Of a stretch of DNA of 64,000 nucleotides, positions 44,962-52,861 are shown piece after piece (within the stretch, counting starts at the first letter, position 1; every line of letters starts with the position of its first letter). Made by a program: the position numbers and the translations under genes. The notes beneath the pieces were generated by a model. It made no database searches. It was not told the DNA's origin and saw nothing but the letters and a program-made list of their open reading frames with translations. This DNA comes from a bacterium (GTDB lineage Bacteria; Patescibacteriota; Minisyncoccia; Phycocordibacterales; UBA918): the NCBI GenBank assembly GCA_043719295.1, contig JAYSUD010000001.1:189799-253798 (forward strand), given 5' to 3'.

Positions 44962-45033
44962 GGTCTCATCGTCTAACGGTTAGGACGCAGGATTCTCATT
45001 CCTGCAATCGGGGTTCGATTCCCCGTGAGATCA
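44962..45033 (+). tRNA. tRNA-Glu (anticodon CUC)
   Basis: Manual cloverleaf: 7-bp acceptor stem ggtctca/tgagatc with one G-U pair, D-stem gtct/ggac, anticodon stem cagga/tcctg, loop ttCTCat, T-arm cgggg-ttcgatt-ccccg. No encoded CCA. Confidence 0.8.
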
Positions 45034-45046
45034 CGAGTACAAGAAA

Positions 45047-45220: not shown

Positions 45221-45931
45221 CTACCCTCCTCCAAACTCCCGTACTATCTCCTTTTCATTTTTGGCATCAAGGGACTTCTTGAACCTTGTGCTTTTTTTGC
45301 CTTTGACTCTGCTTTCGCACTCTGTCCATGTGGCATGTATTTGTATAACCCCTTCTACCATACTGATATACGAAAAGGCTTTCTGAGCTCCGCGCTTGCG
45401 GGCGTCACTTCGTTCTTGTGCTTTAGCTTCATCAAACGTAGTGTCTTCGATATTAAATCCATACTCGCTTTTTGGTCCACGATACAGTTCACACGTTCCC
45501 TTTTCAGCAAAAGTTGAAGCGATAGTGTCAGCTCGTTCATTACCAATAATACCAACGTGCCCTGGCACTTTGTGCCACTCTACCGCAACTTGTTTTAGTA
45601 GTGGCAGGAGTGCTTGCCATAATTCCTTGTTTGCAACATCGGTATCTGCTTTTGTTTTCCAACCGTTTTTGACCCATCCAAAAATCCACCCTTTCGCACC
45701 TTCAACTACGTACTTTGAGTCAGTATAGATTGCCACTTGAGTAGAGGTACGTGCTACTTCTTTGAGCGCTTCAACTACCGCAGTTAATTCCATTTCGTTA
45801 TTGGTCGTACGTTCTTTGTACCCACCGATTTCTACCACTGTATCTGCATACGAAATCACAACCGCAAATCCCCCGCGTCCTGGATTCCCTTTTGCTGCAC
45901 CGTCAGTAAAAATGGCAACGTTCTTTTGCAT
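45221..45931 (-). CDS. rnhA: ribonuclease HI with a C-terminal viroplasmin-like hybrid-binding domain
   Basis: N-terminal RNase H fold (IFTDGAAKGNPGRGGFAVV...TNNEMELTA...HVGIIGNERAD). C-terminal KAFSYISMVEGVIQIHATWTECE...KKSTRFKK resembles the Cauli_VI/HBD domain. Confidence 0.8.
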   Translation of the reverse strand: MQKNVAIFTDGAAKGNPGRGGFAVVISYADTVVEIGGYKERTTNNEMELTAVVEALKEVARTSTQVAIYTDSKYVVEGAKGWIFGWVKNGWKTKADTDVANKELWQALLPLLKQVAVEWHKVPGHVGIIGNERADTIASTFAEKGTCELYRGPKSEYGFNIEDTTFDEAKAQERSDARKRGAQKAFSYISMVEGVIQIHATWTECESRVKGKKSTRFKKSLDAKNEKEIVREFGGG

Positions 45932-47908: not shown

Positions 47909-48050
47909 AGCGAAAGTATAGCAAAGATTGATACCGAGCTAAATGATACAACCATACCAAAAAGAGTATTTAATCAAACAGATCTTGATGTCAGTAATTA
48001 TCAACATCTATGTTTGATTTTTGTACATATTTAGTATATATTGTATACAT

Positions 48051-48725
48051 ATGAGTACAACATACGCGTCCTTAGTACGTGAACTCCGCCAGAAGCGGGG
48101 ATTTTCACAATTGGAACTAGCGGAGAAGCTAGGTATTTCTCGTGCCTCTTATATTGCAATTGAGCAAGGAAAACGTGAACTGAGCATGAGTGAGTGTGAA
48201 AAATTATCGCAAGTTTTAGGTGTGTCAATTAGTGACATTAAACGAGGAGAAGCGCCTAACTACGAAAAGTACAGACAGATGATTTTACTGTATCTCAGAA
48301 TGAATAATGATGTAACAAAAACTAAATTGGCAAAGCTGCTCTATTTCGCAGACTTTACCTGGTACTATCACCATCTTGAAAGTATGAGTGGCATGGAATA
48401 TCGAAAGATCCAGTATGGCCCAGTGGCAGATACGTACTTTAGACTTATCGACGAAATGCGTGATGTTGGTGAAATCAACATAGAACTCAAAGACGAAGGT
48501 GCAATGCGAATTTCACAAACTGACTCGGGAGCAAAACACGCTATCACCATGATTGAAGCAGAAGAAATTGCTCTCATGAATGATATCAACAGTAAATGGA
48601 GAGACAAGCGAACGGCTGAAATTGTATCCTTTACCCATAAACAGCTTCCCTTCCTCCTTGCTGATGATAATGAAATCGTTTCGTACAACGCATTTGGTCA
48701 AGAAAATCCGGACGATATTTATTAA
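48051..48725 (+). CDS. XRE-family HTH plus Panacea (DUF4065/SocA-like) domain protein; putative antitoxin
   Basis: N-terminal LVRELRQKRGFSQLELAEKLGISRASYIAIEQGKRE HTH. C-terminal KLAKLLYFADFTWYY...YGPV Panacea-like signature. ttgtacatat/attgtatacat direct repeats sit over the start. Confidence 0.65.
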   Translation: MSTTYASLVRELRQKRGFSQLELAEKLGISRASYIAIEQGKRELSMSECEKLSQVLGVSISDIKRGEAPNYEKYRQMILLYLRMNNDVTKTKLAKLLYFADFTWYYHHLESMSGMEYRKIQYGPVADTYFRLIDEMRDVGEINIELKDEGAMRISQTDSGAKHAITMIEAEEIALMNDINSKWRDKRTAEIVSFTHKQLPFLLADDNEIVSYNAFGQENPDDIY

Positions 48726-48732
48726 TATCTTT

Positions 48733-49125
48733 ATGAAGTACCAGGTCGTCTTTCTTCCCTATACCGATCGACACTATATAAAATCATTTGCAAAAAAATA
48801 TAAACGTGCTTGGAATGAGACGATGGACGCGCTATGTACTGAATTTCGGTCTGTAGATGTCTTATTTGCAAAAACTATTGCGGAAATTATTTGCGTATCA
48901 CCAGACAACGAGATTAAAATTTGTAAGACTGAATTTAAGATACTTGGAACGAATATATCACGACACGCTTCTGGTTATCGATGTATTATTGCAGTCCATA
49001 AAAGTAGTCAATTGGTAAATGTTTTGCTTATATATGGGAAAAGTGATGTTGGAGGAAAAAACGAAACTGCTTGGTGGAAAAATATTTTACGAGAAACATA
49101 TCCTGAGTATAAAGACATACTCTAG
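48733..49125 (+). CDS. putative RelE/ParE-fold toxin partner of the Panacea protein
   Basis: 130 aa starting 8 bp after the partner's stop. ...RHASGYRCIIAVHKSSQLVNVLLIYGKSD resembles the RelE/ParE beta-sheet core. Uncertain. Confidence 0.4.
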   Translation: MKYQVVFLPYTDRHYIKSFAKKYKRAWNETMDALCTEFRSVDVLFAKTIAEIICVSPDNEIKICKTEFKILGTNISRHASGYRCIIAVHKSSQLVNVLLIYGKSDVGGKNETAWWKNILRETYPEYKDIL

Positions 49126-49247: not shown

Positions 49248-49703
49248 ATGACACGCGTATCTGACGACTCTTTCATGATCGGGCCATTTGGCGACAGTAA
49301 GAAGCCATATGATTACTGTGAAACAATGCTTAAATACGCCCTTCTAGCAGAAGGACCAAAGCAAACAGAGATTTTTGAATCGTCAATTGGTCTCATTATC
49401 GACATGCTTGTTGACGGCATCACCGATGAGTTAGCGGTGAAAAACAAGTGGTCACGTGAGCAAGGTAATCTTGCTGATAAAATATTGTTATCATTCGTTG
49501 AAATTTCACGAATATACGTCATCGACACTTTCAGTGAAAAAAGCTTGAGTGATAACGATGGGACTGATGGACCACTGGCATTTGCGATACTGTTCTTCTG
49601 GACATTGCGGGATAGGGCGTACCAATGTGTAGAAGACAATGTAAAGACGATGCAAACGCAACTTTCCATAACTAAGCAAGTTCCACCGGAAAACATAAGT
49701 TAA
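49248..49703 (+). CDS. hypothetical protein (151 aa)
   Basis: ORF only. Confidence 0.4.
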   Translation: MTRVSDDSFMIGPFGDSKKPYDYCETMLKYALLAEGPKQTEIFESSIGLIIDMLVDGITDELAVKNKWSREQGNLADKILLSFVEISRIYVIDTFSEKSLSDNDGTDGPLAFAILFFWTLRDRAYQCVEDNVKTMQTQLSITKQVPPENIS

Positions 49704-51043: not shown

Positions 51044-52861
51044 CTAGTTGACGGTGAAGTTAAACATCATCCCGGCCCCCATATGCTCTGCAATATGGCA
51101 GTGTGACATCCACGTCCCTTTATTACTCATGTCAATAAGAATATCAACAGTCTGACCCATTGGAATTAAGACCGTATCTTTCCACTGCAAGTTTTCGTTT
51201 GCAACACCATCACGACCTAAGACAACAAACCGCTGTCCATGGAAGTGCAGTGGGTGTTGCATTGGGTGGAGTCCTTTACCGTCATTAAACACACGTATCT
51301 TAACCATGTCACCTTGTGTAAATGACCAATTGATTGCACTGTTTTTTAGTCCTGTTGTTTCATCTTCAATGACCCATTCTACAGTTTCATTTGAACTCAT
51401 TTGATTAACTTCAGCCATGCCGTCTTCCCACTCAATGCCGTCTTGGTGGGTGTGCATCATTGCCATAGGCATACCTGCAGTTAGATATGTTGAACAACCA
51501 TCTGTATTTGGTACAAGCTGACAATACTGTGTCGCTTGCGACTCTGTCATTTCTTTCCCTCCGAGTATCACTGTTTTATTTTGCGCTGTTTGTAGCAAAG
51601 GTCCGCATTCTGCCATTGATGGCATGACCGCACAGTGCTCTATCCCTTGTTGTTTTGTCATTTTAACTCCCATAACCATCACGTTTCCATCACTATCAAC
51701 TTGACCTACAGAAGTATCACTTGAGCTTATGCTCTTTAGTTCAATATCAAGGCGGATTTTTTTATCAGGTTCTTTTTTGAGGAGTGCTCCAATGTTGGTT
51801 CGGATATTTTCATAGTCAGAGGTGTTTGAACGCATTTGTAGAAATTTTTGCTCTTCAACCGCACTACTTGGTTTTACAATCACCTCACCAATTTTCAAAC
51901 CACGATTTAAGATTGGATAGGTACCTGCTTCTTTGTAGAGCAGTTCAAGCACATAGCGTTCAGATGGACCAAATACCGTTTTTTCAATTTGAACTTCTTT
52001 TTCAATTCGTCCGTTATCGCCTCCAACTTCTTTAACTAGCGCTCCAGAAAAAGCAATCTCAAGCGTACGCGTGTTTGCAACGTTAGTGAGAAAGAAACGG
52101 GATACTTCCCCTTGGTTGACGGTCAGTTGTAAATTTTCTTTGTCGTTAATGAGAATTTGATCACCATACCGACCCATGAGTGTATGAGTAATAATCGTGG
52201 GATCAAAATCCCCTTTTTCAAGAAGGTCATCAAAAATAAGATACTCTTCGTGCGCAACGGTATTCCAATACCCATCTTCAGTAACTATCATGTTGCCATA
52301 AAGCCCTAGTTCCTGCTGGTAGTCTTCACGAATGTGCGGGTGATACCAGAAAACACCTGTATCAGGAAACTCAAGCTCATAGGTAAATGTACCTCCAATT
52401 GGTATTGGACTTTGAGAAACTGGTACAGCTCCATCGAATTTCCAATTACCTCGAAGTCCATGTGAATGAAGTGCAGTTTCCATATCGATACTATTCTTAA
52501 AGTTCACGGTTATTTTTGAACCTTTCTCAACTTTAAGTATAGGTCCTGGAATCTGTCCATTATATGCAAGGCGTTTTATCGTTCTATTACCTACTTCTTG
52601 CACCACAATAGTCGCCTCAAGATCAAAGGTGTCACCATCTTTAAGCTCCACAATTTGTGTTGGTTTAACGCTATCTCTGTTTTCATCAACCAACGTCAAT
52701 CCCCCTTTAAAGTTCTCAGGTGTCAGTATTTGTTCAACTTCCATTTGCTTAGTAATTCGATCACCGTACAACGTATAGAGTAGAACCCCAACAATAACAA
52801 GGCAGAGTGAGACAATAATAGTTATGAGAAGCCTGAATTGTGATGGTAAAATTTTAATCAT
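51044..52861 (-). CDS. multicopper oxidase (laccase/CueO-like) with an N-terminal membrane anchor
   Basis: Copper-ligand motifs HSHGL, WYHPH, HPLHFHG and HCHIAEHMGAGMM. Confidence 0.85.
   Translation of the reverse strand: MIKILPSQFRLLITIIVSLCLVIVGVLLYTLYGDRITKQMEVEQILTPENFKGGLTLVDENRDSVKPTQIVELKDGDTFDLEATIVVQEVGNRTIKRLAYNGQIPGPILKVEKGSKITVNFKNSIDMETALHSHGLRGNWKFDGAVPVSQSPIPIGGTFTYELEFPDTGVFWYHPHIREDYQQELGLYGNMIVTEDGYWNTVAHEEYLIFDDLLEKGDFDPTIITHTLMGRYGDQILINDKENLQLTVNQGEVSRFFLTNVANTRTLEIAFSGALVKEVGGDNGRIEKEVQIEKTVFGPSERYVLELLYKEAGTYPILNRGLKIGEVIVKPSSAVEEQKFLQMRSNTSDYENIRTNIGALLKKEPDKKIRLDIELKSISSSDTSVGQVDSDGNVMVMGVKMTKQQGIEHCAVMPSMAECGPLLQTAQNKTVILGGKEMTESQATQYCQLVPNTDGCSTYLTAGMPMAMMHTHQDGIEWEDGMAEVNQMSSNETVEWVIEDETTGLKNSAINWSFTQGDMVKIRVFNDGKGLHPMQHPLHFHGQRFVVLGRDGVANENLQWKDTVLIPMGQTVDILIDMSNKGTWMSHCHIAEHMGAGMMFNFTVN

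Follow-up and report, generated by a model that had tools for sequence, protein, structure and literature searches.

PanAT toxin-antitoxin systems, in which a Panacea-containing antitoxin (PanA) is paired with a toxin (PanT), were defined by Kurata et al. 2022 (PMC8832971), and NetFlax was defined by Ernits et al. 2023 (PMC10440598). According to the former, 343 PanAs carry an N-terminal helix-turn-helix (HTH) domain, and the PanT groups T14, T28 and T59 give HHpred matches to HigB-2, YoeB, RelE or ParE. In multidomain PanAs, linear neutralisation has been described, and the Panacea domain has been proposed to serve as a sensor or platform (PMC10440598). Precedents thus exist for PanAs with an N-terminal HTH, for RelE/HigB-2/ParE-type partners and for neutralisation through appended linear elements (PMC8832971, PMC10440598). 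Here we describe a two-gene locus in a 64,000-nucleotide stretch of DNA (hereafter the window; positions 189,799 to 253,798 of contig JAYSUD010000001.1, assembly GCA_043719295.1) from a bacterium of the Patescibacteriota. The locus is likely to be a functional PanAT module with a RelE/HigB2-type mRNA endonuclease (mRNase) as its toxin, the toxicity, RNase activity and ribosome dependence of which are predicted from sequence and structural models. The kind of system is already known; it comes here with a new toxin family, a particular HTH-Panacea-tail arrangement of the antitoxin, and a restriction to one lineage.

The two genes lie in tandem on the + strand, gene 1 running from the ATG at 48051 to the stop at 48725 and gene 2 from the ATG at 48733 to 49125. 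Position numbers are those of the whole window, position 1 being its first letter.

48051-48725, + strand, panA-type antitoxin gene, 224 residues (HTH, Panacea, C-terminal tail), assigned from Pfam, homologue alignment and AlphaFold2
48075-48236, + strand, XRE-type HTH domain, residues 9-62 (Pfam HTH_3; Foldseek)
48327-48644, + strand, Panacea/DUF4065 domain, residues 93-198 (PF13274; phrog_1281, expectation value (E) 1.2e-12)
48645-48722, + strand, C-terminal tail, residues 199-224, conserved and predicted to be disordered, the proposed toxin-neutralising element (predicted local distance difference test (pLDDT), conservation, covariation)
48733-49125, + strand, toxin gene, 130 residues, of an unnamed RelE/HigB2-like family (AlphaFold2, Foldseek, HigB-2 profile match, hhalign)

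The original prediction had placed a candidate PanAT-type pair at this site, and its coordinates, lengths and quoted peptide motifs are all present in the two + strand open reading frames (ORFs). In gene 1, KLAKLLYFADF corresponds to residues 92-102 and YGPV to residues 122-125, and the gene 2 product includes RHASGYRCIIAV...VNVLLIYGKSD. Only the spacer between the gene 1 stop and the gene 2 ATG, given as 8 bp, has to be corrected to 7 nucleotides. Judging by homologue numbers, both are real genes and neither is a chance ORF, since gene 1 has more than 1500 homologues, and gene 2 has 172 homologues in a set of 5.8 billion proteins, all of approximately 128-145 residues, and 206 clusters at 50% identity in an exhaustive hidden Markov model (HMM) search.

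The conserved pairing of the two genes is the strongest evidence for the module. Metagenomic homologue look-ups, which covered eight loci in six distinct gene contexts (one of them, L008, a 1.2-kb contig fragment only), revealed an HTH-Panacea gene of 223-225 codons directly upstream of the toxin gene in all cases. A one-genome-per-species scan yielded 142 relatives, 80 of which were taken into the locus comparison. When both window proteins were used in tblastn searches, a full-length gene 1 homologue (44-81% identity) was located directly upstream of the toxin gene and on the same strand in 86 of 88 loci. The two exceptions are a locus cut at the contig end (L083) and a decayed copy (L063; CAZUST010000007.1, 2814-3387). 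In the latter, the antitoxin is reduced to a C-terminal remnant (...QEDPDYVY). Its toxin ORF, although intact, has the substitutions W27R, W115R and T73K at otherwise invariant positions. Such decay would be expected for a toxin deprived of its antidote, but this is a single case. The toxin start overlaps the antitoxin end or lies 2-7 nucleotides past its stop in all loci (overlap or 2-6 nucleotides in most relatives), an arrangement that points to translational coupling.

Nearly all of the 142 species-level relatives are metagenome-assembled genomes (MAGs) of Patescibacteria, and include Kaiser-, Nomura-, Yanofsky-, Azam-, Taylor-, Staskawicz- and Gribaldobacteria, Paceibacterota and Minisyncoccia. 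Five loci (L011, L019, L024, L044 and L076) belong to MAGs that bear the labels Gammaproteobacteria, Pacearchaeota, Bacteroidia or Verrucomicrobiota, probably through mis-binning or automatic labelling of the contigs and not because the family truly occurs outside Patescibacteria. No member of the toxin family was found in GenBank phages, PLSDB plasmids or IMG/VR, and no anomaly in GC content, and hence no horizontal-transfer signature by this measure, was found around the module in the window. The flanking genes are unrelated among the six inspected gene contexts. In L001 (382-3573), the module adjoins HNH, MazG-like and SLFN-like helicase/S24 peptidase genes, and in L004 (1-2383) it adjoins Fic, TaqI-like restriction enzyme and methyltransferase genes; there are hints of a defence-island placement in part of the toxin family.

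All gene 2 homologues that bear names are called "hypothetical" and come from Parcubacteria or Patescibacteria. A 49-sequence toxin alignment contains 23 invariant positions. In a broader alignment of 105 family representatives, diverging to approximately 25% identity, E111 never varies, and conservation is at least 90% at K21, K65, F68, S76, R83, L98, Y101, K103 and T112. Searching the PDB with the single gene 2 sequence returned nothing significant, and the narrower profile A1, made from closer relatives, found no RelE. The 105-member profile, in contrast, retrieved Vibrio cholerae HigB-2 (E 0.008), which accounts for the sole matches at E of 0.05 or lower. The family stretch iagtkeSakssgnRcIvlvdeekkevkiLlvYsKndikk is aligned with HigB-2 residues 52-89, VA-SKGKGKRGGSRIIYYFLDEKRRFYLLTIYGKNEMSD, and this is the same part that had been flagged from the sequence as RelE/ParE-like. 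The toxin profile was also compared by hhalign with a HigB-2 family alignment, for which the query was identical to 5ja9_C and PF06296 relatives were gathered; the probability was 74.8% (usual confidence level 90-95%), with an E of 2.6e-5 over 60 columns. By sequence and predicted fold, gene 2 defines a previously unnamed RelE/HigB2-like toxin family of approximately 200 clusters at 50% identity, on which literature searches found nothing.

An AlphaFold2 model of the toxin built with the family alignment has a pLDDT of 89 and a predicted template modelling score (pTM) of 0.85. It features a first beta-strand, three helices, four strands and a C-terminal helix, with the following elements (E, strand; H, helix):

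E4-7, H9-22, H27-39, H41-46, E50-55, E61-67, E82-89, E94-102, H111-122 (AlphaFold2)

The model thus has the small alpha/beta RelE/ParE-type fold, in which an N-terminal strand and helices on a four-stranded antiparallel sheet are followed by a C-terminal helix. Foldseek searches of the PDB bear this out. Approximately 35 of the top 37 matches are RelE, HigB, HigB2, YoeB and ParE (PfiT) toxins or the RelE-like Cami1, with probabilities up to 1.0 and target-normalised template modelling (TM) scores of 0.44-0.65. The best match is the archaeal RelE 1wmi_A (E 2.7e-3, probability 1.0, target-normalised TM 0.63), and V. cholerae HigB-2, Thermus thermophilus and Escherichia coli RelE, and Mycobacterium tuberculosis RelE1/2 are also represented. 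The RelE/ParE-like fold proposed for the 130-residue ORF, for which structure prediction was the suggested check, is therefore supported by top matches drawn nearly all from the RelE superfamily.

In HigB-2, replacement of R51, R64, Y82 or K84 by alanine lowers activity by 170- to 3000-fold (Hadzi et al. 2017, PMC5416850). These residues align with toxin K69, R83, Y101 and K103, respectively, and HigB-2 K49 aligns with K65. R83, Y101 and K103 show at least 90% conservation among the 105 family representatives. The alignment of R51 with K69 is less secure, and K69 reaches 90% conservation only in the closer-relatives alignment A1. K65/K69, R83, Y101 and K103 therefore make up a putative active site, and the protein is probably a divergent, ribosome-dependent mRNA endonuclease of the RelE/HigB-2 type, as judged from the fold and these residues.

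Both domains that had been read in gene 1, an XRE-type HTH fused to a SocA/Panacea-like domain, exceed the Pfam cut-offs. HTH_3 covers residues 9-62 (E 6.5e-17) and SocA_Panacea (PF13274) residues 93-198 (E 1.3e-13, 52.3 bits versus a gathering cut-off of 25.7). PF13274 is present in all 120 gene 1 homologues among the matches listed, and alignments begin at residue 1 in most loci. The AlphaFold2 model of the antitoxin has a pLDDT of 80, with the HTH and the Panacea region predicted confidently, and its HTH matches C.BclI, ClgR, SinR and HipB in Foldseek (root mean square deviation 1.3-1.8). Weak, sub-threshold NCBIfam matches to SocA (E 0.002) and DarG (E 0.0014) are explained by the shared Panacea domain. 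Assignments to SocA (SocA_antitoxin, 17.8 bits versus an NCBIfam cut-off of 190) and to DarG (antitoxin_DarG, 17.9 bits versus 250, the macrodomain being missing) were rejected, as was an MqsA-type assignment, on the basis of score and missing domains.

Downstream of the Panacea domain, antitoxin residues 200-224 have pLDDT values below 50, and the tail is among the most conserved parts of the protein, with invariant P200, A204, N207, V210, S211, Y212, F215 and Q217. Residues 200-224 make up 11% of the antitoxin and show lower entropy than the rest. Segments that are disordered and yet conserved are typical of antitoxin parts that fold on the toxin. Covariation was assessed by mutual information with average product correction (MI-APC) on 80 non-identical, phylogenetically related antitoxin-toxin pairs. 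Residues 200-224 account for 45 of the top 100 inter-protein couplings (Mann-Whitney p = 1.8e-5), and the coupled toxin positions E29, A33, T36 and S40 lie on one helical face of alpha2/alpha3, with V41, L44 and L71 also involved. These data are suggestive of the C-terminal tail being the toxin-binding element. Neutralisation by the tail, as proposed here, matches the linear neutralisation of multidomain PanAs (PMC10440598).

Upstream regions of 70 non-redundant loci were aligned, and the following elements were located in the window:

47988-48007, + strand, candidate operator O1, inverted repeat ATGTCAGTAATTATCAACAT (ATGT-N12-ACAT), at approximately -63 from the ATG (conservation in 70 loci)
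48010-48028, + strand, candidate operator O2, inverted repeat ATGTTTGATTTTTGTACAT (ATGT-N11-ACAT), overlapping the -35 box and the spacer (conservation in 70 loci)
48014-48042, + strand, predicted sigma-70-type promoter, -35 TTGATT (48014-48019), 17-nucleotide spacer, -10 TATATT (48037-48042) (promoter scan; boxes in approximately 70 loci)

The consensus reads ATGTCAAa.tTAT.aACAc ... ATGTTTGAc..TTtTTtACAta ... taTATAcT, followed after 6-8 nucleotides by the ATG. The most conserved boxes are ATGTCAA and TATCAACA. The boxes are kept in loci whose proteins share only 44-81% identity, and conservation stops further upstream. TTGAC and TATAcT boxes are found at equivalent positions in approximately 70 loci. 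The -10 box ends 8 nucleotides before the ATG in the window and 6-8 nucleotides before it across these loci, and no Shine-Dalgarno sequence precedes the antitoxin ATG. Because of these two features, the antitoxin transcript is probably leaderless, a property that would be conserved in these Patescibacteria.

The ATGT-N10-13-ACAT pattern occurs 49 times in the 70 upstream regions, compared with 0.8 times in shuffled sequences, and clusters near -62 and -39. The centres of O1 and O2 are approximately 22 bp, or two helical turns, apart, and O2 covers the -35 box; both features fit binding by an HTH dimer and autorepression. It is plausible that the antitoxin binds DNA at O1/O2 and regulates its own expression. 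The original prediction had also favoured autoregulation, and had ascribed it to direct repeats overlying the promoter and start. Both repeats exist in the window (TTGTACATAT at 48021-48030 and ATTGTATACAT at 48040-48050; a repeat search gave three 12-nucleotide copies with 11-nucleotide spacing at 48019-48052), the first overlapping the right half of O2 and the second the -10 box and start codon. They were rejected as operators, as the repeat relation is not conserved across loci, whereas the inverted ATGT...ACAT pairs and the promoter hexamers are. Autoregulation thus remains plausible, with the conserved inverted repeats as the likely operators. A third ATGT-N11-ACAT site, ATGTTGGTGAAATCAACAT, lies within the antitoxin coding region at 48463-48481, and may be a chance occurrence or an internal operator.

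Taken together, these features suggest the following mechanism. One promoter would start transcription at or next to the antitoxin ATG, giving a leaderless mRNA that encodes antitoxin and then toxin, the translation of the latter being coupled to that of the former. The free toxin would most likely enter the ribosomal A site and cleave the translating mRNA, using K65/K69, R83, Y101 and K103. The antitoxin would bind the toxin through its disordered C-terminal tail (residues ~199-224), which would dock on the alpha2/alpha3 face formed by E29, A33, T36 and S40. Its XRE-type HTH, presumably dimeric, would bind the two tandem inverted repeats flanking or overlapping the -35 box and repress its own operon. 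The globular Panacea domain may act as a scaffold or sensor and not as the neutraliser, in line with what has been proposed for other multidomain PanAs. The tail mechanism and operator binding are put forward with less confidence than the PanAT module with an mRNase toxin.

Several observations weigh against this interpretation. As the original prediction had noted in finding no close match for the 130-residue ORF, gene 2 has no family match in Pfam, NCBIfam or PADLOC, and none that is significant in PHROGs. The window toxin matches none of the RelE-superfamily models (PF06296, PF05016, PF05973, PF15738 and similar), and only one of the 105 family members matches PF06296, weakly (E 0.014); on its HMM scores, it lies outside PF06296 as currently defined. 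The hhalign probability of 75% for the comparison with HigB-2 is below 95%, the Foldseek E-values of the toxin are modest (2.7e-3 or worse) and its query-normalised TM scores are 0.34-0.48. RelE/ParE folds also cover gyrase poisons that are not nucleases. On the antitoxin side, Foldseek searches of the PDB and BFVD returned only HTH matches, and the sequence profile search of the PDB reached no solved Panacea structure; since the HTH dominates the fold matches, support for the Panacea assignment comes from the Pfam HMM. With 80 related pairs, the covariation is no more than suggestive. The promoter scan of the window is by itself not above chance, ATGT-N11-12-ACAT sites are not enriched window-wide (7 sites versus 3.9 expected), and a window scan found no terminator 3' of the toxin gene.

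Among the alternatives, the one that survives best would add a function to the PanAT reading and leave the biochemistry unchanged. The module may mediate anti-phage abortive infection or respond to a host or episymbiosis signal, with the Panacea domain sensing the trigger and releasing the toxin. We regard this as possible but doubtful. A sensory role of Panacea has been proposed for multidomain PanAs (PMC10440598), some loci adjoin restriction-modification, Fic, HNH or SLFN-like helicase genes, and neutralisation seems to map to the tail and not to the Panacea core. However, the toxin matches no PADLOC defence model, the neighbours in the window are of housekeeping type, and phage, plasmid and IMG/VR collections lack the toxin family. 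In its most specific form, namely, that Panacea is dedicated to sensing a phage-derived, host-derived or metabolic signal and allosterically releases a HigB2-like mRNase held only by the tail, the idea is rather improbable. If it were true, the module would represent a switch for translation shut-off or defence, activated by a trigger and shared across a lineage of episymbiotic bacteria, and not a passive addiction module, and would offer a tractable model for what Panacea senses.

Alternatively, the two genes may not form an addiction pair at all. The 130-residue protein would then have a RelE fold but weak or no toxic activity, and would partner an XRE-Panacea transcription factor, for example as a co-repressor or an RNA-binding accessory. 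The location of the family outside every curated toxin model would suit this explanation, and the small genomes of Patescibacteria might be expected to lose a purely selfish module. We nonetheless consider it quite unlikely, as the residues that align with the HigB-2 active site persist in a family diverging to approximately 25% identity, the architecture is the canonical one (antitoxin-first, translationally coupled and apparently autoregulated), and flanks vary between loci, as is the case with mobile toxin-antitoxin modules. Moreover, the sole locus that has lost the antitoxin is also substituted at invariant toxin residues. The weakest alternative, that an otherwise identical PanAT pair encodes a ParE-type DNA gyrase poison instead of an mRNA endonuclease, can draw on a fold common to ParE, on the presence of PfiT (9w3a) and a Mesorhizobium ParE-like toxin (5ceg) among the Foldseek matches and on the ParE-domain PanTs listed in PMC8832971, but is very unlikely because the mRNase active-site residues are retained, with counterparts of all four HigB-2 residues kept in the alignments, while ParE-type matches rank below RelE and HigB2 and the only sequence-level PDB matches are to the mRNase HigB-2.

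The neighbours of the module in the window are ordinary chromosomal genes, which encode a phosphodiesterase, an EngB-like GTPase, an RNase H, a CAP-domain protein and a multicopper oxidase. The RNase H gene (45221-45931, - strand) encodes an RNase H domain (residues 3-140) and a C-terminal extension of approximately 95 residues lacking assignment, and is adjoined by a tRNA-Glu(CTC) gene at 44962-45034. The multicopper oxidase (51044-52861, - strand) comprises 605 residues and three Cu-oxidase domains, and is encoded on a contig that seems to derive from a small-genome member of the Patescibacteria. Directly downstream of the toxin gene, a 151-residue ORF (49248-49703, + strand) has no Pfam match, and its position next to the module is not kept in the other inspected loci.

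In the PanAT reading, a toxin family with relatives in at least 142 species-level genomes, almost all from Patescibacteria, occurs strictly with a single HTH-Panacea antitoxin lineage. This would extend the PanAT network into a phylum outside RefSeq-based surveys. The module overturns nothing known and will not surprise specialists, yet the predictions are sharp. They concern three concrete elements: the active-site residues K65/K69, R83, Y101 and K103, the tail formed by residues 199-224, and the operators at 47988-48007 and 48010-48028. The system could also help to show the role of Panacea where Panacea itself is not the neutraliser.

The locus shares features with several known systems. 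The antitoxins of SocAB (type VI) and DarTG, SocA and DarG, contain Panacea-related regions. In contrast to DarG, the window antitoxin has no macrodomain, and the window toxin is unrelated to SocB or DarT. The fold, the antitoxin-first order and autoregulation by the antitoxin (plausible here) are held in common with E. coli RelBE and archaeal aRelE-aRelB (PDB 4fxe, 4v7j and 1wmi), as is, by prediction for the window toxin, cleavage of mRNA in the A site. However, RelB binds DNA through a ribbon-helix-helix domain and has no Panacea domain, and the putative active site of the window toxin follows the HigB-2 variant, in which the tyrosine lies on the last strand and not, as in RelE, on the C-terminal helix.

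At the sequence level, the best relative of the toxin is HigB-2 of the V. cholerae HigB-2/HigA-2 pair (PF06296; PDB 5ja8, 5ja9 and 8a0x). The two proteins have a common core, G-x-R-x-I-(8-12 residues)-LL-x-Y-x-K-(N/S)-(D/E), and both feature a long loop before the arginine strand and a C-terminal helix. Likewise, HigA-2 and the window antitoxin both combine an HTH with a disordered toxin-binding segment, a candidate one in the present case. Identity between the toxins is only approximately 15-17%, however, and the window toxin is 20 residues longer and has an extra N-terminal helix. Moreover, the neutralising segment of HigA-2 is N-terminal, whereas the candidate segment here is the C-terminal tail that follows Panacea, and the antitoxins are unrelated apart from the HTH.

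The closest likeness is to PanAT systems, with which the locus shares a Panacea antitoxin carrying an N-terminal HTH, a conserved bicistron, and a RelE/HigB-2-like toxin as in groups T14, T28 and T59 of PMC8832971. No Patescibacteria entry was found in the covered part of its supplementary text. In the dataset rows covered, the RelE/HigB-2/ParE-like PanTs, which that study did not test, are paired with PanAs without an N-terminal domain, whereas the HTH-PanA rows pair with toxins of the MqsR group, in toxin-first order. In contrast, the present pair combines an HTH-Panacea antitoxin bearing a conserved, predicted disordered C-terminal tail with an antitoxin-first gene order and a toxin that lies outside the family models.

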